From: Candidatus Heimdallarchaeota archaeon B3_Heim
GTDB taxonomy: Archaea; Asgardarchaeota; Heimdallarchaeia; Hodarchaeales; Hodarchaeaceae
Direction of reading: 5' to 3'
Assembly (NCBI GenBank): GCA_003144275.1
Contig: NJBF01000023.1
Coordinates: 1-32,000 of the forward strand
DNA length: 32,000 nucleotides
Under the pieces are notes generated by a model. It ran no database searches. It saw only the letters and a list, made by a program, of their open reading frames with translations, and was not told the DNA's origin. Every line of letters starts with the position of its first letter. Position 1 is the stretch's first letter. Position numbers and translations under genes: made by a program. Shown in pieces: positions 90 through 21,739 of this stretch.

Positions 90-1268
90 ATGAACAAAAT
101 AAAACTACCTCGCTTTCCACCACGGAAAGCACGAAATACATCGACCCTTATAAACTTTGTAGTACGCTGGTTAGATAAATATCAACTCTTATTAAACCCA
201 GTTCCAAGTAGCTCGCCTTTCAACCTGAAGGATAGATTGAAATTACTTTTACTTACCGCTATAGATCGAACCTCAATTTCTCGCAAAGCTCGAGATCTAC
301 GAGAGCAAAACCTCCCAATTCCCTCGGGTGAAGCTACTTTAGCATGGTTAAAAACCAAATCCGTTGAAGATATAACAGCCTCGCAACAAACTGGTTTCTA
401 CCAATTCTTAGAGAGTCTGCCTGAGAACTTTCAGTTTGCTCGGAAGCAAGGAATGTTGCTAGCGATCGACTTCCATACTGATCCTAATTATGCAAAAACT
501 TTATCCGCTTATATCTGTAAAGGTAGGAAGAAAGCCAGTACCCACCAGTTTTATCAATATATCACAGTCATTTGGTTAAATGCACCCGAACCAATCACGT
601 TAGGAGTCCAACTTCTCCCTACAAAGCATTCGACTTTCAAGACTGTTCAGAGCCTTTTGACACCTCTACTCACTCAAGAACGAATTGTTGGAGTACTTGC
701 GGATGGTGGATTTTATAATTATGATTTGATCCAGTGGTTTATTCATAAGCAAATTTTTTTCATCATTCGAGGACGTGTTAATGCAGGTGTTAAACCTTTG
801 GTGCAAAAATACCAAGAAGAGTTACGTCAAAAAGGAACACATTTGGTTGTAGACTATCGTGTGAATAAAGGCCATACTCGGAAACGACTTCCCGTTAAGC
901 TCGCTCTTTGCCGAGCAGGTGATCGTATCATGGCTTTAATTGTACCTCCCACCTGTGTTCTCTCAGGAAGACGGATTTATGATCTTTATCGGCAGCGTTT
1001 CACGATTGAGACCTATTATAGGCAGATGCATCGCTTTCAGATTTTTAGTTGCTCCCAACACCCAGCTGTCCGATTTATTATCGTTCTTCTCGCATTTTGG
1101 TTATGTAATTTCTGGGCCTACTTTAAAGCGCTGCTTAATCTCTTAAAACCAACTAGTCGTAGGTGTCGGGTGGATTTTGTTTATACAGCAAACGATTTTT
1201 GTGAATTTCTCCGCACATCATGGGATCGGACGCTATTTAACGGACAAGGGGTATTTTCGAGGAGGTGA
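90..1268 (+). CDS. DDE transposase (ISH3/IS4-like)
   Basis: Candidate catalytic triad in LAIDFH, VLADGGFY and YRQRFTIETYYR (Y-x2-R-x2-IE-x2-(Y/F)R signature). The stop codon abuts the right TIR. Confidence 0.92.
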   Translation: MNKIKLPRFPPRKARNTSTLINFVVRWLDKYQLLLNPVPSSSPFNLKDRLKLLLLTAIDRTSISRKARDLREQNLPIPSGEATLAWLKTKSVEDITASQQTGFYQFLESLPENFQFARKQGMLLAIDFHTDPNYAKTLSAYICKGRKKASTHQFYQYITVIWLNAPEPITLGVQLLPTKHSTFKTVQSLLTPLLTQERIVGVLADGGFYNYDLIQWFIHKQIFFIIRGRVNAGVKPLVQKYQEELRQKGTHLVVDYRVNKGHTRKRLPVKLALCRAGDRIMALIVPPTCVLSGRRIYDLYRQRFTIETYYRQMHRFQIFSCSQHPAVRFIIVLLAFWLCNFWAYFKALLNLLKPTSRRCRVDFVYTANDFCEFLRTSWDRTLFNGQGVFSRR

Positions 1269-1280
1269 TACGAAGTACTG
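1269..1280 (-). repeat. Right terminal inverted repeat of IS
   Basis: TACGAAGTACTG, reverse complement of 1-12. Confidence 0.92.
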
Positions 1281-1791
1281 CAACGGTTAATGTCCAAATA
1301 CCATGAAAAATACCCATGTATTGTCATAAATTATAGAATTAATGAAATCAGATTTTTCTATCTCTCTTTAAATAACCCCATTGCTAGATTTTGAGAGAGT
1401 TAAAATCCCTCTCATACCTTCTTTTTAAAACTAGCATATGGATTTTCACAAAAGGTCATTTTCCTCTTTCGTGTCATAGCGGTAGCAGAAGCGTTTCTCA
1501 AGCAATTTCAAGTCATTCATGGCATTACACCTTAAACTGATGAAATTTTCCCACATCTTAAGGATTTTTTAAACAAAAATGGTTAATTCAAATAATCGAT
1601 TGAAAAACAAATCAAAAATGAAAGGAACTTGCTAATTAGCAGACTTTTCCTTTTTTGGTGCTCTTGGTTATCGTTTTAGAATGACTTAGAAATGACAATG
1701 CAAGTACTGAAAATAAGTTGAACTTGATATTGTAAAGAAATCTGGCATTGCTGGTAAATTTCTTTAACACATCTAAATCTCAATCTCAAAT

Positions 1792-2814
1792 ATGTTTAAT
1801 CCTGCACAAATTGGCTCATTAAAGATACCAAACCGATTTATACGTTCAGCAACGGCTGAATTTGCAGCAAATCCTGATGGTACAGTAATTGATGAATATT
1901 ACAAGCTGTACACCGATTTAGCGCTAGGGGAAGTTGGTTTGATAATTCAGGGACATCTCTATATAATGGATGAAGGAAAAGCACATGATAAAATGGCGGG
2001 GATAGCCCATGATTATCATTTAGATGGACTTAAACGAATTGTTCAATCTATTCATAATACTAGCACTGGAAGTAAAGTTGCAGCACAATTAAACCATGGT
2101 GGGTTTCATTCTGTTTCTAAGAAAGCTCCTTCCAAGCGTGATGAAAAGAACGACAGAGTTATGACTGAAGACGATATTGAAAATATCATTTTAAATTTTG
2201 GTAATGCTGCTCTAAAAGCAAAGCAAGCTGGTTATGATGCTGTACAAATTCATGCTGCACATGGATATCTTGTAAGTCAGTTTTTATCAAGTAAGTTAAA
2301 TCAAAGAACTGATTCTTGGGGAGGTAGTTTAGAAAATAAAGCACAAATACTTCTATCAATTTATCAAAGGATTAGATCGCAAGTAGGATCTAATTTTCCT
2401 GTATTAGTTAAAATGAACAATTCGGATGAACCTCATGAAGGATTTCCTGTGGAAGAAGCAGCTAAAGTTGCTAAATGGTTGGCAGAAGAGGGTTTAGATG
2501 CAATCGAGGTAAGTGGTTTACGCTCAACACGAACTAAATTTGAAGACGAGGCATATTTTTCTAAAAATGCAAGAATAATTAAAAAGAACATTGGCGATAT
2601 GCCTCTTTCGGTGGTTGGCGGATTTCGGTCTTTAAAAGTAATTCAACAACTCCATCAGGAGTTTGCAGACTTTGTTTCCATTTGTCGTCCTTTTATAAGA
2701 GAACCTGATCTAGTAAAGAAGTTTCGTGAAGGAAAGGAAATATCAGACTGTATTTCGTGTAATAAATGTTTCAAACCACCACTCATAATTACCTGTCTCG
2801 ATAAGGAAAATTAG
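1792..2814 (+). CDS. NADH:flavin oxidoreductase (Old Yellow Enzyme family)
   Basis: IPNRFIRSAT, GEVGLII, AAQLNHGG, AGYDAVQIHAAHGYLVSQFLS..N.RTD.WGGSLEN, CRPFIREPDL and a C-terminal CISCNKC. Confidence 0.93.
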   Translation: MFNPAQIGSLKIPNRFIRSATAEFAANPDGTVIDEYYKLYTDLALGEVGLIIQGHLYIMDEGKAHDKMAGIAHDYHLDGLKRIVQSIHNTSTGSKVAAQLNHGGFHSVSKKAPSKRDEKNDRVMTEDDIENIILNFGNAALKAKQAGYDAVQIHAAHGYLVSQFLSSKLNQRTDSWGGSLENKAQILLSIYQRIRSQVGSNFPVLVKMNNSDEPHEGFPVEEAAKVAKWLAEEGLDAIEVSGLRSTRTKFEDEAYFSKNARIIKKNIGDMPLSVVGGFRSLKVIQQLHQEFADFVSICRPFIREPDLVKKFREGKEISDCISCNKCFKPPLIITCLDKEN

Positions 2815-2860
2815 AATCATCTTTTTTCTTAAGACAGAAGTTTATTGCTTAAAATCATTA

Positions 2861-3832
2861 TTATAAACGATCGACTGGACCAGTACGAATAGAAGTTCGT
2901 GATTTCTCAATGAGAGAGCTCATACGTTCGATTTGGACTAATAGTAATTTTACGTCATCTTCAGTTAAAGAAATCCCTTTTTCTTTTGACGTTTCTAAAA
3001 TAGCAAGAATAATATGATTTATATTCGACAAATCATGATTTATGATGTCAATAAAGGTATTTCGCTCGAATTCCAATTTTCTCTGGTGGTATCGTTGTAA
3101 ATATGTCCACCGAAGTGTGGGAAACATCACTAAACATAACATCGTGGTTGCGAAGACAAGAGCGCGAAATTCTGAGGTCAATGGAAAAACAAGACGAAAT
3201 AGAATTGATAAAATAAGACCTACAAAAGCTAATAGTGAGATAATTAAAAATAAATAATGGTAAGTTGATACACCGTATTTTTTCTGGTAATCTCGTCTAT
3301 ATTCAGATACTGTTTGGATACCATACCAGGTCCCAGTTATTAAAGCAAATAGAGTACTGAAATTCACTACCCATGGCGGATTGTAACCAAATAAAGGTAT
3401 ACTATTCTGAATCTCCAAAATCTCCAAATCCACGAAAAGGTAAGAGACAAATGCAATAATGCCAACTAAGCATAAAAGACTCCATACAATTAGACCAGAT
3501 TTAGTTAAATTGAACTCAAGTTTTAGAGCAAGAGCTAAGAAAAAGAACGTTATGATAGCTGCAATATTTACCGTTTTAATTAGACTAATAAGGTTAAAAA
3601 CGAGTATCGTAGATTCTGGATTAACTAGGGAAATCCAATTATAACCTAGTAGATTTCCAGTATAAAAAAGGAAAATCCAAAGAAAAAATCCGAAATATGT
3701 GATATTATAATAGCTTTGGGCTTGCTTCCTTAATTGGAGAACTCTCAAACCATAGAATATAATCCCCATTATAGAAAGAAATAAACTGAAAGAAACAAGG
3801 ATGTTGACTAGCAGGAGTATAAGCATTTTCAC
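2861..3832 (-). CDS. Seven-TM membrane protein with C-terminal HisKA (DHp)-like helix pair and no HATPase domain
   Basis: About seven hydrophobic segments, then TFIDIINHDLSNINHIIL (H-box-like) and IERMSSLIEK (second DHp helix), then stop. The start may be ATG 3826. Confidence 0.7.
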   Translation of the reverse strand: MKMLILLLVNILVSFSLFLSIMGIIFYGLRVLQLRKQAQSYYNITYFGFFLWIFLFYTGNLLGYNWISLVNPESTILVFNLISLIKTVNIAAIITFFFLALALKLEFNLTKSGLIVWSLLCLVGIIAFVSYLFVDLEILEIQNSIPLFGYNPPWVVNFSTLFALITGTWYGIQTVSEYRRDYQKKYGVSTYHYLFLIISLLAFVGLILSILFRLVFPLTSEFRALVFATTMLCLVMFPTLRWTYLQRYHQRKLEFERNTFIDIINHDLSNINHIILAILETSKEKGISLTEDDVKLLLVQIERMSSLIEKSRTSIRTGPVDRL

Positions 3833-4064
3833 CGCCCCAATTGTTGAACCACCTTAAAAATCAAGACCAAATTCCTCAGTACTGGTGAAATAGTGACACT
3901 TCCTTAAAAATACTATCCTATTCGGAAAAATTCCTATCACTAAGTAAATCAGGTCCTAGCGGTTATTTAAGCAGATAATAATGATTTTCGTGGATTCCTT
4001 TTTTATATACATTGGCTTTACCCTTCCTCATCTTCACAATGGTCTAGATGAGACTAATTTTGCT

Positions 4065-4163
4065 AAACAAAGAGTCTTTTTCCTGCAAGATTTTCCCTAT
4101 TCTTCTTAAGAAAATCTTTCCCTTCTTTTGCCCAAAACAAAACAAAGAGTCTTTTTTTTTTTT
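4065..4163. repeat. 17-bp direct repeat pair followed by a T12 tract
   Basis: AAACAAAGAGTCTTTTT at 4065-4081 and 4140-4156. The T run spans 4152-4163. Confidence 0.8.
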
Positions 4164-4280
4164 ACACGAGAACGGTAGGTACCATTATCGTGGGATCAAT
4201 ATTTTGAGGTAATGTTTGTAAAATCATGATAGTTCATTCCTTAACTCTAGTTTAGCTTCATGATTTTATTAAATAGAACA

Positions 4281-5356
4281 CTAGTTGATCATTTGTTCTG
4301 TTTCTCTATTTCTACTCCAAGCTTTTGATGTTAACAAGACCAAATAATAAATCCCTAATAACAACCCGACTGACATAATTACCTTTATTTCCTGTGGTGC
4401 TTGCTTGCTCAGACCACTGAGGGTAAAGAGCAGTGAAACACTGATCCAAAGCGTAGTGATGGTCACATCGAATATAGAACGTTTCCTTCGCTTAAGAGTA
4501 ACTTGTTCAGCTTTTTTTGAAGCGTCAGTCGACAGTGATGCCTCTTTGTGCCCCAAAGTGAAAGTAATTGCCTTATTTGGACATATATCGGTGCATTTGA
4601 GACATCGGATGCAGTCTAAGCTACGTATCTCGCCGTGCTTTTTGAGGTCACCCAGTACATCCACCTGCATCGGACAATTGCGGTTGCATTGCCCACAACC
4701 CACACATTCATTGCTTACCAACCGCACTTTACCCATACAACCGCTTCCAAAAATTTTGAGTAGTGCACCGATCGGGCATAGGTAACGGCACCAAGCTCTT
4801 CTCCCAAAAATAAAGATGAGTACTGGACCATATAAAACCGCGGTAAGCAGGATGGAAATCCCAGTTTGTTGTCCCCCCACGGTTCTATATCCGCCAGCTG
4901 TAATGTAAACATGGTTGGGAAAGTTTTCAACCATGTCACTAGCAAGGAGCTGTAGATCTTCATCACCAAAGCAACGAAAGCTAAGGCGCCTAAATGCAAT
5001 AATACCCTACGAGGAACCTTATTTTTTCGTGTTTTCTCCATCCCCACCTCGATTAGTTCCAGATAACCACCAAACCAGCAGAACCAACCGCAGAAAACTC
5101 GACCAAATAATAATGCGGAGATAAATACAAAAATCCAGAAGAAAAACCCAGCATTGAGCACTCCCCGCGAAAGTCCTGAGAATAATGCTTCGATTCCGAT
5201 GCTACCAACAATCTGAATTCCCATTGGATACCAAGTAATCAGATGCGTAAAAATTAACAACATTAAGAATAATCTGCTGAATGTACGAAGTGTTTGCCCC
5301 CTAATCGTGACTGCATTCCTCGAAATGGTCTTTTTGGTACCCATTATATCAAACAT
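4281..5356 (-). pseudogene. Membrane 4Fe-4S binding protein (NapH/FixG-like polyferredoxin), split by a 1-nt frameshift
   Basis: ORF 4715-5356 carries the N-half (TMs, FGRVFCGWFCWFG). ORF 4281-4934 carries the C-half (RRAWCRYLCPIG, CVGCGQCNRNCP, CIRCLKCTDICP). Adding one G to the G6 run (C6 at 4873-4878 on +) joins them as ..IEPWGGQQTGISIL.. Confidence 0.85.
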
Positions 5357-5448
5357 CTTTTTTTCTGTAGGTAAATTCGATTTTTATTTGGAATTCTATT
5401 TGATCATAACCTTTAGCTGGGATTTTTCCCTGCTTCACTCTATTCTAA

Positions 5449-5613
5449 TCATTCTTCTATTGATATTTTGTCAAGAGTATCTTTGATGCATTCAAGTCTT
5501 TCAATAGTGCTTGTTAAACATTCTTTAGCGTGTTCAAGTGACTCTGTTTTAGTCATTTTATTATGATGTTCGCCTTTATGTTTACCACAGGTACATTTTT
5601 TCTTTTCTGACAT
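5449..5613 (-). CDS. Small Cys/His-rich protein, 54 aa (below the ORF-track cutoff)
   Basis: MSEKKKCTCGKHKGEHHNKMTKTESLEHAKECLTSTIERLECIKDTLDKISIEE*. A strong SD (GAGGTGA, + strand 5620-5626) lies 6 nt before the ATG. Confidence 0.8.
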   Translation of the reverse strand: MSEKKKCTCGKHKGEHHNKMTKTESLEHAKECLTSTIERLECIKDTLDKISIEE

Positions 5614-5659
5614 ATTTATTCACCTCTACTTCACTTTAGAATCTGGATTAATAGCGAAT

Positions 5660-5675
5660 AATAAAGCTTTATATA
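5660..5675. promoter_or_regulatory. Likely bidirectional BRE/TATA region between the small Cys/His gene and the HxlR gene
   Basis: Perfect palindrome ATAAAGCTTTAT (5661-5672) overlaps TTTATATA (5668-5675) in an 85-bp divergent intergenic region. Confidence 0.55.
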
Positions 5676-5698
5676 ATCATCACTCCTAACCTTAGTAG

Positions 5699-6103
5699 TT
5701 GCATTGGTGGTTTAAAGAATTGACAAAAGCACGACAAATTGTTGAAGAATGTTTTCCTGTTTCCTTAAATGGTGTGTGCCTAAAACCATTGGCTAAAAGT
5801 TTAAGATTAATAAGTAGTAAGTGGATGATATTTACTTTGATGGCACTTCCTCCTGATTCGACCCCAGTACGATATTCGGGAGTTAGAAATCGAGTAAAAC
5901 AGATTGTCTCTAAAAAAATCAGTGATACAACACTCTCAATACGTTTAAATGAATTAGTTGAGAAAAAGATTGTCGAACGAAAACAGTTTAATGAAATCCC
6001 TTTACGTGTTGAATATAATTTGACAATAAAAGGTACCGAGTTACAGAAAAGTCTTCAACCACTGATAGAATGGGCGATTCAAGATTGTCACCAAAAATCC
6101 TAA
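5699..6103 (+). CDS. HxlR-family winged-helix transcriptional regulator
   Basis: CLKPLAKSLRLISSKWMIF, VRYSG, ISDTTLSIRLNELVEKKIVERKQFNEIPLRVEYNLT.KG. The TTG start is uncertain. Confidence 0.88.
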   Translation: MHWWFKELTKARQIVEECFPVSLNGVCLKPLAKSLRLISSKWMIFTLMALPPDSTPVRYSGVRNRVKQIVSKKISDTTLSIRLNELVEKKIVERKQFNEIPLRVEYNLTIKGTELQKSLQPLIEWAIQDCHQKS

Positions 6104-16893: not shown

Positions 16894-18000
16894 TTATAGA
16901 TTTTTCGCTTGTCCGTAGCTATTGAAAGCTTTCAAGAACATCAATGCACTTGTATAAGCCGCTGATGCTAAAGCATGCTCAGTGCTCGCATCAACATCAT
17001 ATAGTTCATCAAAATGTTCTACTATGGCAAGCTTACTATATTTCAAAAAAGTTTCATTTACAGGAACACCTGTTTTATGATAATTCTCACTGGTCCATTT
17101 GAAAATGGTTTCAAACAGCTCTGGTTCAAAGATTTTAAGAACATCCCATGCAACAGTCATCCAATTTGTTCCCACATTTCCTTTGCCAATTACATCTTTA
17201 GGAAATCTCTTAGCAATGATATCGAGTGGAGTACCAGTGATTCCATGTTGAGCGATTTTCACACCAAAAGGTTTGATGGCTTGGCCGATATCTGATGTCA
17301 GTTGAATGTCAATCCCTTCCTGTCGTATTGGATTACCACGTTCATCATATTGAAATCCATGAACAGAACCATTTGCGATTGCAAGAAAATGAGGGTGGAC
17401 ATCTTGTTCTTTCAATGACTCAATGAAGGTTGTTGCCTCACTTACTGTAGTCATTACTAGCCCTGTTTTTGGGTCTTTTTTTCCTATCTCTCCAACCTCT
17501 ACCTCTAATCCAAATTTTTTATGCCCCAGTTTGTCCTCAATGAAATGAGTCACTTCAGTGGTTGCTTTGATGTTCCCTGCTAACCGTTCCTTATCATTGG
17601 TTCCTGATTCATCATATAAGAAGCTTGCATCAATGGCAAAAGAGGTATACCCCGCTTCAATTTGAGCTGTGATTAATTCTTTCACTCCAGGAATATCCTC
17701 AGGTTTTCCTACCTTGATATGATCCCCGTGGATAACATAATTAGAGTATTGGACTTCTGTGGCTACACCTCTCACAAATTTTCCATATTTTGCTGGAGTA
17801 AGTCCTGTGTATCCTCCTTTTAGATCTGATTCCGATTTAGCTAATTCAAAAGCTATTGGTGAATCTGTATCCTTTGCAGCTTGTAAAATTCCTTTTACCA
17901 CTCCCTTACCTATTCGTGTATTACACGCCATAATAATACTCTTTGTAGGATGAAGCTTTTCGTAAAAAGGCTTTCCCCACATTGGTTTATAATCAGACAT
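16894..18000 (-). CDS. fba: Class II (metal-dependent) fructose-bisphosphate aldolase
   Basis: IHGDH, SFAIDAS, EVEVGEIG, LAIANGSVHG, AQHGITG, KGNVGT. Confidence 0.88.
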   Translation of the reverse strand: MSDYKPMWGKPFYEKLHPTKSIIMACNTRIGKGVVKGILQAAKDTDSPIAFELAKSESDLKGGYTGLTPAKYGKFVRGVATEVQYSNYVIHGDHIKVGKPEDIPGVKELITAQIEAGYTSFAIDASFLYDESGTNDKERLAGNIKATTEVTHFIEDKLGHKKFGLEVEVGEIGKKDPKTGLVMTTVSEATTFIESLKEQDVHPHFLAIANGSVHGFQYDERGNPIRQEGIDIQLTSDIGQAIKPFGVKIAQHGITGTPLDIIAKRFPKDVIGKGNVGTNWMTVAWDVLKIFEPELFETIFKWTSENYHKTGVPVNETFLKYSKLAIVEHFDELYDVDASTEHALASAAYTSALMFLKAFNSYGQAKNL

Positions 18001-18282
18001 TATTTTAACTCCGCAGAATAATTGTATTTAGATAATTAGATCTATTTACTGAAACATTTAAAACTTGGCTAGTTAATCAAACTTATAAAGGTACTAGTCT
18101 ATTATACTCTGGGGATAGGTATTATTTTACTCTTATTTCTGGAATATTAAGAGTGGTTAGAGTGCGTGCATTTTACCTACCCCCTCAATCTCTTAGATAC
18201 GGTCTTTTTAAGATTTTTTAAAAACTAGGTTACTTGTTTTTATATGTAAAGTTTAGGGCTTTGCTGGGGGAAAAGGGAAAAT

Positions 18283-18333
18283 AGTCAAGTCAAGTCGAAA
18301 AGCTAACATCATCAACTCAACTCAACTCAACTC
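18283..18333 (+). repeat. Two pentamer microsatellites
   Basis: (AGTCA)2 AGTC at 18283-18296 and (TCAAC)4 TC at 18312-18333, ending 12 nt before the TTG at 18346. Confidence 0.85.
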
Positions 18334-18345
18334 TATATTATCCGA

Positions 18346-18897
18346 TTGAACCAGTCTCCTACTTTTGATTTCTGGAGGATTAGCTTAAATAAAGAAAAGA
18401 TAACTGTTATTTCTAAAAATCCTCAATTTGTGGGGAAAGTGATTGATGTGCAAACAGAACGAAGACAAGGCATGTCAGATAAAGAAATGTTTGAATTTCT
18501 TTCAAAAGAAGAATTAGGCACAGTTGCAACTAGAACTAATTTAGTTAAACGATTAGAACAGTGGGGCTTTCTTCTTAAATCTCCAAAAGGAGAATACAAG
18601 CTTGATGATAGAATGAAAGTAATGACCATAGCGGTTGATAATGTTGATCCATCGTTAACATCAGGGGAATTCTCAAAATGGCTTAAAGAAAAACGGGTTG
18701 TTGTTGAAAAAGATCCTATACAATATAATCCACAAAAATCACTCTTGTATAATCGTTTAGCGTTAATTGTCAGTGATTTAACCGATGACAGAGTAATTCA
18801 AAGCACAGAACAAAAGTTTCAAAATATCTCCATGAGAACTCAACTAGATACTTTCTTAAGAAATGATCTCCAGGATGACATGGTGCAAATTGAATGA
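18346..18897 (+). CDS. Stand-alone protein resembling the C-terminal core segment of type IA topoisomerases (no TOPRIM, no catalytic-Tyr region)
   Basis: MSDKEMFEFLSKEELGTVATRTNLVKRLEQWGFL matches the Topo IA/III pattern E..L...M...GLGT.ATR..II..L..RG(F/Y), and VDPSLTSGEFSKWLKEK resembles the following P.LT.PE.TA.WE..L segment. Matched from memory, not by search. Confidence 0.6.
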   Translation: MNQSPTFDFWRISLNKEKITVISKNPQFVGKVIDVQTERRQGMSDKEMFEFLSKEELGTVATRTNLVKRLEQWGFLLKSPKGEYKLDDRMKVMTIAVDNVDPSLTSGEFSKWLKEKRVVVEKDPIQYNPQKSLLYNRLALIVSDLTDDRVIQSTEQKFQNISMRTQLDTFLRNDLQDDMVQIE

Positions 18898-19073
18898 AGT
18901 CAATCTTAGATATTAAACCCGAATTAATCAGAATTAAGACTGATAGATCAGGAAAATGTGTCCTTTGTGATAAACAGTCTGAAGAAAGGATTTTAAGTGA
19001 AAATAACAAAAAAGTATTCTTCTGTAGAGACCATTTTGAAGCTCTTTGCACTAAATTGAAAAATTTCCATTAA
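18894..19073 (+). CDS. Small zinc-finger protein, 59 aa (below the ORF-track cutoff)
   Basis: MKSILDIKPELIRIKTDRSGKCVLCDKQSEERILSENNKKVFFCRDHFEALCTKLKNFH*, with CxxC...CxxH. ATGA overlap with the upstream stop. Confidence 0.78.
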   Translation: MKSILDIKPELIRIKTDRSGKCVLCDKQSEERILSENNKKVFFCRDHFEALCTKLKNFH

Positions 19074-19096
19074 AATAAAAGGAAGGTTGAAATAAA

Positions 19097-19585
19097 ATGA
19101 GGAAAAGAGGATTTGTATTTATTTGTAGTATAATATTATTGATCAATATTGGTTCAGTTAAAGCGAATCAAATATCAATTATCGGAGGAGCAACAACTAC
19201 AACATCAAGTCAACAATCGGTTTTTATACCAGTTGGTGACTATCATGTGTTTATTAATGCTAGTGGTTATTTAGGCTCATCAGTTGCTTACTGCACAGCT
19301 TCTAATAGCACAACAACACTCTTTACTTGGACTACAAGTGATAGTGTAGATAGTTGGACAGGTCAGATTACCTTTTCTAGTTCAAATACTATTAACTTTA
19401 CGTTTGAGATTCAGACTATCTATACGACTTCTTATGAAATGACTTTTCAGATCATTTTGACAGATCTGGATGTTGCCACCATTACGAAGACTGGTATAGT
19501 TGCAGATGCGACTTGGGGTATAGAATTCATTGGATTAGCCTTAATTTGCGTATCATTAGTTCTTTTACGTAAAAGACGGTTATAA
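19097..19585 (+). CDS. Small surface protein (signal peptide, Ser/Thr-rich beta domain, C-terminal TM plus basic tail)
   Basis: MRKR + hydrophobic stretch + VKA cleavage site; C-terminus WGIEFIGLALICVSLVLLRKRRL. Confidence 0.8.
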   Translation: MRKRGFVFICSIILLINIGSVKANQISIIGGATTTTSSQQSVFIPVGDYHVFINASGYLGSSVAYCTASNSTTTLFTWTTSDSVDSWTGQITFSSSNTINFTFEIQTIYTTSYEMTFQIILTDLDVATITKTGIVADATWGIEFIGLALICVSLVLLRKRRL

Positions 19586-19591
19586 AAAGAA

Positions 19592-19613
19592 TTCTTTTTT
19601 TCTCACTTTTTTT
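19592..19613 (+). terminator. Archaeal oligo-T terminator
   Basis: Two T7 runs (19595-19601 and 19607-19613) directly after the 19585 stop. Confidence 0.5.
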
Positions 19614-19711
19614 CGTATTAATAAAATCTTGTTCCAAATAAAAAACTAGATAAATAAAGCAAAAATTTTAGAATTTTCAATTAGAATTTATAGAAAGGGG
19701 TATTACAAAAA

Positions 19712-20359
19712 ATGAAAGAAGGTTTAGGTGGATCTGTATCAATATTTTTGAGATTATCAAATGCAAAGGATAGAATTCAATTTATCCTAAATAAAAATGG
19801 CTTTGATAGAATCCCAATTAAACAACCATCATTACAATATTCGGGTTTAATAGCAGCTCCAGTAAGATACGAAATTGCACAGAAAAACAATGTTATGATC
19901 AGGTATAATCCAGAAAGATATTTATTAGATGCTGTTGGATCTCTTGATGATATAATTACTACTATTGACGATCTTATCAAAGCATTTGAAAACCTAGGAT
20001 ATGACCTTGAAGACATGACTAGATATCTGGAATTTAATACACATCTTGAGGAGGGAATTGAAACAACAATGGCTAGTTTTTTTGAGAAACAAGTTGAATT
20101 AGGATCATTAAATAAAATTGGGAATTTATTAAAGGAAGAAAAATTAAGTGTATTCCAATTACATCTTTCTAATTCAATATCCCCTTTACATGATAACTGG
20201 CTTTCTTTTCGAATAAATCCTGATATTAATAGTAATAAGATTGTATTTATTAAAGTAACAAAACGAACAGAAACTTTTAAAGCCATGATAGACTTCTTAA
20301 CAAATTTTAATACAAGATTCGATGAAATCGTGAGTATTTTAGGGGAAGATGGACTATAA
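19712..20359 (+). CDS. Hypothetical protein
   Basis: 215-aa AT-rich ORF whose stop abuts the next ATG. No motif recognised. Confidence 0.7.
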   Translation: MKEGLGGSVSIFLRLSNAKDRIQFILNKNGFDRIPIKQPSLQYSGLIAAPVRYEIAQKNNVMIRYNPERYLLDAVGSLDDIITTIDDLIKAFENLGYDLEDMTRYLEFNTHLEEGIETTMASFFEKQVELGSLNKIGNLLKEEKLSVFQLHLSNSISPLHDNWLSFRINPDINSNKIVFIKVTKRTETFKAMIDFLTNFNTRFDEIVSILGEDGL

Positions 20360-20788
20360 ATGTCTGATAATGTTAATTGGCGAGAATTCCTTTTTAATAT
20401 TCTTAAAGGTAGTGAAAATAGGCCTGATGAAACTGCAGGAAGCACAGCAGGAGAAACAAAGAGAATATCTATGCAAAGAACAGTAATCGATCAAATAGAG
20501 GTTACACAAGGAATTGAAACAAACAAGGTTGTATTTAAAACGATTTTTGAGTTACTCAGTAATATAGATATGAGACTAAGAAAGCTAGAAAATCTATTCG
20601 TTTTTGAAGAGGAAGATGATTCATTATCATCATCTTCAAGAGAAGAAAGTAAAGCAAATATTATTTCTTTATTGCAAGAATCTGATATGACACTTTACCG
20701 ATATGAAATTGCAGATCATTTAAATTTAGATTTGGAACTGGTTTCAGAAATTGTAAATGAATTAAAGAATGACGGGTTGATTGATTAA
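20360..20788 (+). CDS. Hypothetical protein with coiled coil and C-terminal winged helix
   Basis: LSNIDMRLRKLENL heptads, then IISLLQE...YRYEIADHLNLDLELVSEIVNELKNDGLI. Confidence 0.7.
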   Translation: MSDNVNWREFLFNILKGSENRPDETAGSTAGETKRISMQRTVIDQIEVTQGIETNKVVFKTIFELLSNIDMRLRKLENLFVFEEEDDSLSSSSREESKANIISLLQESDMTLYRYEIADHLNLDLELVSEIVNELKNDGLID

Positions 20789-20966
20789 AATGTCAAATCA
20801 CATAGAAGAGGGCGATTCCATTCAGGGAGAAGTTATTAGTTGCCAAGCTAGAACTATAGGAAAAATAACAATAGTCCCAGGGTCTGGTTCTCACCGTGCT
20901 CAAAGAATAGTAATAAAAAGAAACGCTTTTTGTATCATAGACACACCTATACGAATAAGAAGGTAA
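20781..20966 (+). CDS. Small hypothetical protein
   Basis: Overlaps the end of the upstream gene. No motif recognised. Confidence 0.4.
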   Translation: MIKMSNHIEEGDSIQGEVISCQARTIGKITIVPGSGSHRAQRIVIKRNAFCIIDTPIRIRR

Positions 20967-21124
20967 AGCCTACTATATTTCTAATTGAATTCAGAACAAA
21001 AGGAGAATTTTTCGACGGATTTTCATATCTTTAGTAATTTTATAGTCGGGGTATCTTTAAGTTTACATATATAAGTTTGAAAATTGTAAAGTTTTTAATG
21101 GGTTGATTCAAATCCTTTTGTATA

Positions 21125-21739
21125 ATGGCAACAAGTGATTATCTTGATCCTACCTTCTTCATTGACAGTGACTCACCAATAATTCAACAAAAAGCGATTG
21201 ATCTACAATCCCAATCAGCAGATGCAGTGGATCTGAGTATTTCTATATTCAATTTTGTACGAGATACGATTAAATACAAAATAAATATGTCTTATTATGC
21301 TGGTCCTGATGATTTTAAAGCTAGTGCTACATTAAAACGAAAAGAGGGATTTTGTATCCCCAAATCGATTCTATTAGCCGCATTATATCGTAGCTGTAAG
21401 ATTCCTTCAAGATTGCATTTTGCTGATATTATCAACCATCGTAGTCCTGATTATTTAGTAAAACTCATGGGTACAAATGTATTCTATTTTCATGGGTATG
21501 CAGAGGTTTTTCTAAACGATCAATGGTACAAGCTTACTCCTTCTTTTGAAACCGAACTGTGTCTGAAACATGATTTTCCCATTTGTACCTTCAATGGATC
21601 AAATGACGCCACGTTTCCTTCAAAAGATCTACAAGATAGACCCTTCATTGAGTATCTGAAGGATAGGGGTGTTTTTGCAGATCTTCCTTTTTCCGAAATG
21701 GTGACTACATTCCAAGGGTATTACAGTGGCCATTTTTGA
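21125..21739 (+). CDS. Transglutaminase-like (papain-fold) protein
   Basis: IFNFVRDTIKY, GFCIPKSILLAALYRSCKIPSRL (catalytic Cys), FHGYAEVFLNDQW (His). Confidence 0.87.
   Translation: MATSDYLDPTFFIDSDSPIIQQKAIDLQSQSADAVDLSISIFNFVRDTIKYKINMSYYAGPDDFKASATLKRKEGFCIPKSILLAALYRSCKIPSRLHFADIINHRSPDYLVKLMGTNVFYFHGYAEVFLNDQWYKLTPSFETELCLKHDFPICTFNGSNDATFPSKDLQDRPFIEYLKDRGVFADLPFSEMVTTFQGYYSGHF

Follow-up and report, generated by a model that had tools for sequence, protein, structure and literature searches.

Does the short reading frame at 18346-18897 in this Hodarchaeales genome encode a free-standing piece of topoisomerase, or is it what is left of a larger gene? In the window (that is, the whole 32,000-nucleotide stretch of the B3_Heim contig analysed here), this forward-strand ORF starts with TTG, encodes 183 amino acids that contain LGTVATRTNLVKRLEQWGFL and PSLTSGEF, and has an in-frame TAA upstream at 18304-18306; an ORF of 59 amino acids with CxxC (C22 and C25) and CxxH (C44 and H47) pairs follows it through an ATGA overlap. 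The features that an earlier note on this DNA had named are all present, and that note had offered four readings of them: half of a split enzyme, a stand-alone mini-topoisomerase module, a partner of TopA or reverse gyrase, or a relic of a mobile element. Only the last of these is supported (by the insertion, the truncated copies and the sporadic occurrence described below), and we propose, with a probability of about 0.7, that the locus holds a relic of a type IA topoisomerase gene of a mobile element together with its Zn-finger partner gene.

The Pfam profile Topoisom_bac (PF01131) matches the window ORF over 80 residues (ORF residues 32-114 to profile positions 313-393 of 411) with 14.2 bits (E = 0.022), which is below the cut-off of 35.1 bits, and the full-length relatives of the ORF likewise remain under that cut-off (18.6-29.1 bits). 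A search of 1.8 billion representative proteins yielded 18 relatives, the best full-length ones being P0004 (813 aa), P0005 (842 aa), P0006 (681 aa) and P0008 (718 aa), among others; P0004-P0012, P0020 and P0021 were set as the members of the family. The full-length relatives align to the window ORF by their last ~170 residues (E = 2.4e-44 to 2.5e-10, 33-52% identity), with P0004 as the top match (residues 640-811 of 813, E = 2.4e-44, 52% identity), and 13 of the 13 family-invariant C-terminal residues are retained in the window. Intact family members span 650-930 aa, and the full-length relatives conserve a TEKxE...DxD TOPRIM-like signature, SYPRTE and LGTxATR. When the PDB was searched with a profile of eight full-length members, only Topo III, TOP3B and Topo I were matched, weakly and collinearly, and the family tyrosine motif was aligned to that of Topo III; in the profile alignment, the window ORF corresponds to approximately residues 508-609 in E. 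coli Topo III and adds further helices.

Structure prediction points the same way. An AlphaFold model of P0006 (pLDDT 81.5, pTM 0.69; 14-sequence alignment) was used for a Foldseek search in which all of the top 50 matches were type IA enzymes (E down to 2e-19, ~610-690 columns); the TM-scores of these matches are low (~0.3), which we take to reflect a differing domain arrangement in the model. Matches in the ESM Atlas, by features and by structure, were type IA as well (TM 0.54-0.61 over 450-500 residues). A model of the fragment alone is confident for residues ~60-165 only (pLDDT 70-94), which form a compact helix-turn-helix and helical bundle, and residues 1-55 are disordered because the domain II strands with which they would pair are missing. 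In Foldseek, the fragment alone matches TOP3B best (probability 0.98, E = 0.18), in a list that mixes MarR/PadR/DtxR-type regulators with topoisomerases (E = 0.2-1.5); a PDB sequence search with the fragment alone gave OppA matches only (E = 0.06), which we judged to be spurious. The relatives' motifs, PDB profile matches and fold therefore place the family among the type IA topoisomerases, as a very divergent one, and the resemblance of the window ORF to topoisomerase IA is real homology. The topoisomerase IA assignment of the earlier note was thus right, as was an Asgard origin, and the assignment is secure because of the sequence and fold of the full-length relatives only, and not because of the fragment's own Pfam score.

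The part of the gene that is present in the window is smaller than the ORF. Homology to the relatives begins only at ~18385-18391 (residue 14-16); residues 1-15 are unrelated to the family and represent junction sequence, and the gene-caller version of the ORF (P0001) begins with a GTG at 18439 and has 152 aa. The two coding features are as follows.

~18385-18391 to 18894, forward strand: 3' remnant of a divergent type IA topoisomerase-like gene (E = 2.4e-44 to P0004)
18894-19073, forward strand: Zn-finger gene, 59 aa, whose ATG overlaps the upstream TGA (ATGA)

Of domain II the remnant keeps the last strands, and of domain IV the C-terminal half with its helix-turn-helix, after which comes a helical tail specific to the family; LGTVATRTNL, and with it the G-x-G-T-x-x-T-R helix-turn-helix, lies in the domain IV part. 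The catalytic tyrosine motif (Y-x-R-T-D/E) is found neither in the window ORF nor upstream of it in any frame, and TOPRIM (catalytic Glu, DxD) is missing from the ORF, in which homology starts at ~640 of 813 family positions. The four-domain toroidal fold is likewise absent from the fragment, which covers approximately one-quarter of the P0006 fold. A remnant that lacks both TOPRIM and the tyrosine would be unable to cleave or religate DNA. Translation into a polypeptide of 152-183 aa may nonetheless continue, as may expression of the Zn-finger gene, which is intact.

Both genes lie in an insertion that is specific to the B3_Heim genome and is bounded by host genes. Its parts and flanks are listed here from left to right.

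16894-18000, reverse strand: class II fructose-bisphosphate aldolase family gene, left host flank
18223-21086: the insertion, ~2.9 kb, low GC, missing in sister species
18238-18281, forward strand: left-end motif, common to L025:2467-2509 (84% over 43 nt)
18283-18384: junction or filler with short tandem units, for which homology to the missing gene part is not supported
19097-19585, forward strand: cargo, 162-aa protein with no family match
19712-20359, forward strand: cargo, 215-aa protein of unknown function
20360-20966, forward strand: cargo, 142-aa protein and an overlapping 61-aa ORF
21044-21074, forward strand: right-end motif GTCGGGGTATCTTTAAGTTTACATATAT, with host homology resuming 12 nt later
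21125-21739, forward strand: transglutaminase-like gene, right host flank

The GC content of the insertion is 0.27-0.33 versus 0.34-0.41 in the flanks. The aldolase-family protein is 89-95% identical in the four closest sister species, and in the two closest ones that retain both flanking genes (G013, with 93% nucleotide identity in the aldolase region, and G020) the place of the insertion is taken by an unrelated spacer of ~0.5-0.7 kb, the distance from the aldolase-family to the transglutaminase-like gene being 3.1 kb in the window versus 0.5-0.7 kb in these two species. Besides the topoisomerase remnant and the Zn-finger gene, the insertion contains four ORFan genes, and counterparts of the genes at 19097-20966 were found at none of the related loci. 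The 215-aa protein occurs only sporadically in the genus, with one distant match among 21 genomes, and the 142-aa protein has a C-terminal winged-helix-like segment (HTH_Crp_2, E = 4e-4, sub-threshold); by eye, the 162-aa protein starts with a signal-like segment and ends in a hydrophobic anchor. The window contains no tRNA that could have served as a target, and no Rfam family was detected within 17900-21400.

At the left side, no frame stays open across 18001-18345. A decayed vestige of the missing gene part at 18270-18390 seemed plausible by eye, with weak collinear HMM matches (E = 0.24 and 0.16), and was rejected in favour of a sharp breakpoint because the score against the closest relative was 9 and the mean of dinucleotide shuffles was 11; a protein motif match at 18036-18080 is a chance match in a stretch that is conserved with the sister genomes. 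Tandem units, (TCAAG)2 and approximately four of CAACT, occupy 18287-18331, exactly between the left-end motif and the truncated gene, and may have arisen as filler or by slippage during the deletion.

The start of the left motif (18238-18253) and 21059-21074 in the right motif form a 16-nt imperfect inverted repeat (14/16). A near-identical right-end motif occurs 0.6-2 kb downstream of the Zn-finger gene at four other loci (L025, L001, L002 and L029), in a ~30-nt form of low copy number, GTCGGGG(T/C)ATCCTTAAG..ACATATA, and is present at two to four other places of the B3_Heim genome (C11:16543, C32:48555, C38:7783 and C62:133). Its core has 0-3 copies per genome and is present in 7 of 22 genus genomes, with zero hits for the reversed control. 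A role as promoter was discarded, with an ORF directly downstream of 0 of the copies in the own genome. The left and right motifs would be the ends of an element, and the right-end motif may mark where a family of elements ends or attaches.

The family itself is rare. A genome search and tblastn with eight full-length members found it in the B3_Heim genome (93.97% complete, 103 contigs) only as the remnant (C47:18385-18894), besides two ordinary full-length topoisomerase IA genes elsewhere in this genome, and it was found in none of 40 related genomes, the 21 other species of the genus included; pattern scans of IMG/VR, GTDB species representatives and JGI metagenome contigs added no further relatives. 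The source contigs of the relatives are named Hodarchaeota or Promethearchaeota, so far placing the family on Asgard-derived contigs only. In the closest copy (L032, 88% nucleotide identity over 18391-19141), the open frame continues upstream for at least another 136 codons, the catalytic tyrosine motif among them, and the similarity to the window ends abruptly at 18391. The contigs that hold intact copies reach 45 kb and consist of unidirectional, mostly ORFan genes, giant ORFs among them. At L007, the intact topoisomerase-like gene adjoins a gene for a 966-aa protein with a primase-like region (2887-5787; phrog_19458, E = 5.7e-17), with a gene for a 479-aa P-loop ATPase with weak terminase/FtsK-like matches at 822-2261 and a Rho_N-like protein, just under the Pfam cut-off, encoded directly upstream of the topoisomerase-like gene. 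Together, the primase-like and ATPase genes resemble a replication module, as an unclassified mobile element or virus of Asgard archaea might carry. At L002:173-1086, ahead of the topoisomerase-like gene, lie genes for a 161-aa nuclease-like protein (weak NOV_C) and a 138-aa SAP-domain protein; by eye, P0010 (934 aa, L024:6742-9546) has a long N-terminal extension with similar nuclease and SAP segments, and these parts may be fused in it.

Several further copies are damaged.

L025: starts at family residue 251
L001: starts at residue 497
L029: starts at ~residue 683, by our reading of the frame
contig holding P0013: 79 residues left
L002 (contig of a Hodarchaeota MAG): whole frame at 1109-3388, interrupted only by two TAA stops

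The stops in L002 lie at 2312-2314 and 2555-2557, and the second replaces the catalytic tyrosine codon (GVVS*PRTEYEG), which reflects either recent inactivation or selection against the active enzyme after integration. The small downstream ORF is intact at L025, L001, L029 and L002. Truncation points differ throughout, no two loci sharing one. The apparent survival of the 3' end is partly ascertainment because all such loci were found with C-terminal or Zn-finger queries, and the idea that nested 5' truncations keeping the 3' end are evidence for selection was dropped on account of this query bias. The earlier note had suggested a search for stand-alone homologs of 150-200 aa, and the shorter forms that we found are truncated or stop-interrupted copies and do not make up a conserved family of that length; the note had also held that homologs occurring only as full-length enzymes would make the ORF a decay fragment, which is largely what we observe.

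A small Zn-finger ORF lies directly behind or overlaps the topoisomerase-like gene in the window and at all eight other loci that could be read (L001, L002, L007, L023, L024, L025, L029 and L032), and among its homologs C22, C25 and C44 are conserved, as is usually H47. The tight coupling described in the earlier note therefore extends, as a homologous pairing, to every locus read, and the topoisomerase-like gene and the Zn-finger gene are, by their sequences and order, a conserved two-gene unit. A Pfam scan of the 59-aa ORF (E up to 1) returned only weak matches to DUF7455 and DUF7354, none of them significant, and there was no profile match to the topoisomerase Zn-ribbon family (PF01396, Zn_ribbon_Top1). 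Unlike cellular type IA enzymes, the family chain has no C-terminal Zn ribbons and is accompanied by this separate small gene, the product of which would stand in for the fused ribbons.

Neither stops nor frameshifts interrupt the 170 codons of the remnant, and its divergence from L032 was compared with that of the neighbouring gene.

Window versus L032, topoisomerase remnant: dS 0.53, dN 0.078, dN/dS 0.15
Window versus L032, Zn-finger gene: dS 0.26, dN 0.043, dN/dS 0.17

With L025 as outgroup for the assignment of substitutions to lineages, the window lineage has accumulated 13 synonymous and 12 non-synonymous substitutions since the L032 split (dN/dS ~0.24) and the L032 lineage 14 and 12, with the same dN/dS; a relative-rate count against L025 gave 6 versus 7, that is, no acceleration. 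The lineage dN/dS values and the relative-rate count therefore give no sign of relaxed constraint. By a rough estimate, a frame of 510 nt that evolves neutrally in a genome as AT-rich as this one would usually be closed once divergence exceeds a few percent. A long-dead pseudogene would look different; the truncation must therefore have happened recently unless constraint still acts on the fragment.

We envision that mobile elements or viruses of Hodarchaeales or other Asgard archaea carry a very divergent gene for a type IA topoisomerase, from which the remnant stems. In these elements the gene would lie within a replication-type module with the small Zn-finger partner gene behind it, and the encoded enzyme probably relaxes or decatenates the DNA of the element. 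A fragment of such an element would have inserted between two conserved host genes, and the gene there lacks everything upstream of approximately codon 640, from the N-terminal region through TOPRIM to domains II-III and their catalytic tyrosine. The remnant is most likely a recent relic that has not yet been disrupted. The type of element, the role of the enzyme and the lack of function of the relic are what we infer here; the element itself was seen in neither complete nor excised form. Counting against a relic are the fully intact Zn-finger gene and the open frame with its 13 invariant residues and a dN/dS of ~0.24.

A rival reading is that, after loss of the catalytic part, the C-terminal helix-turn-helix and helical module and the Zn-finger protein were exapted as a two-protein unit that is kept by selection. 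The pair could bind DNA or have a regulatory role, or it could be a dominant-negative decoy that interferes with incoming elements of the same family (superinfection exclusion). For such a unit speak the open frame with its retained invariant residues, the low dN/dS of both genes in pairwise comparison with L032 (0.15-0.17) and in the window lineage (~0.24), the compact fold modelled for residues ~60-165, and the existence of several independent loci at which the 3' part and an intact Zn-finger gene remain and the 5' part is lost or stopped. However, those loci were found by C-terminal or Zn-finger searches, such that 3' retention is partly ascertainment; every truncation point is different, the fragment is missing from all 21 other species of the genus, residues 1-55 of its model are disordered, and low dN/dS can predate truncation. 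We therefore consider exaptation unlikely. Less probable again is a reading that joins several of the observations, in which undescribed small integrative elements of Hodarchaeales have conserved ends, the topoisomerase IA-like protein and its Zn-finger subunit are the strand-transfer or replication-initiation enzyme, and the remnant pair binds the ends. On that reading, the topoisomerase IA-like protein, as the only large gene, might by analogy form a 5'-phosphotyrosine link in the manner of a relaxase or Rep protein, beyond any help with DNA topology, and the C-terminal piece with the Zn finger would be the end-binding part, for example as an immunity factor.

Three further explanations are very improbable even when taken together. 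A chimeric join in assembly or binning could produce an apparent truncation, and the genome is a 103-contig draft with short tandem repeats at the junction; however, both flanks of the insertion are collinear with the sister genomes on one 71-kb contig, and similarly truncated copies are present in other samples, which were assembled independently, leaving an artefact with a very small probability. A naturally split type IA topoisomerase, with TOPRIM and the tyrosine half encoded elsewhere, is slightly less probable still. Split type IA enzymes do exist, namely the reverse gyrases of Nanoarchaeum equitans and Methanopyrus kandleri, in which both halves are present and needed (PMC8185306), and, as in those cases, the window holds a partial type IA polypeptide, one that ends exactly where the family proteins end. 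However, there is no second half: the own-genome search found no N-terminal half and, besides the remnant, no match to any part of the eight full-length members, the other weak matches being only the two ordinary full-length topoisomerase IA genes, and the break lies inside domain II and not at a domain border. The half-enzyme proposed in the earlier note is thereby contradicted, and its stand-alone mini-topoisomerase module or partner of TopA or reverse gyrase found no positive support, the intact relatives having 650-930 aa. Finally, an ordinary winged-helix regulator with a chance resemblance to topoisomerases might be suspected from the sub-threshold Pfam score and from the regulators among the Foldseek matches of the fragment; this simple alternative, which the note had itself raised, did not materialize and has next to no probability, as the ORF shares 45-52% identity over 170 residues with the C-terminal ends of proteins that have the type IA fold over their whole length and its motifs, and its top fold match is TOP3B (probability 0.98).

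The mobile-element relic that we favour can be set against known systems. The fold of type IA enzymes (E. coli Topo I and Topo III, human TOP3B, Saccharolobus Topo III and the reverse gyrase module) is common to the full-length relatives, which also have TOPRIM, domain II, domain III (Y-x-R-T) and domain IV (G-T-x-x-T-R) in the type IA order. The family is only ~10-14% identical to the solved enzymes and falls under the Pfam gathering score, and it has extra N-terminal regions (SAP-like by eye in P0004 and P0005) that known type IA enzymes lack. Type IA enzymes are encoded by plasmids and giant viruses, and a Nucleocytoviricota cluster is among the ESM Atlas matches of the family. [quoted passage not shown] As in remnants of prophages and other integrated elements, there is a strain-specific low-GC insertion with a sharp breakpoint, and there are differently truncated copies and nonsense mutations in another copy; unlike typical remnants of this kind, the one in the window has a signature of purifying selection, and an intact partner gene is always beside it.

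In summary, the family behind the fragment is a rare and very divergent type IA topoisomerase branch that escapes standard profiles and appears to be undescribed, no description having been found in the searchable literature. The fragment is what mobile-element decay ordinarily leaves behind, and it should be annotated neither as a mini-topoisomerase nor as a split enzyme. The family lengthens the list of mobile-element topoisomerase variants in the archaeal lineage that is closest to eukaryotes, and provides a marker for spotting integrated elements and their remnants in Hodarchaeales genomes.
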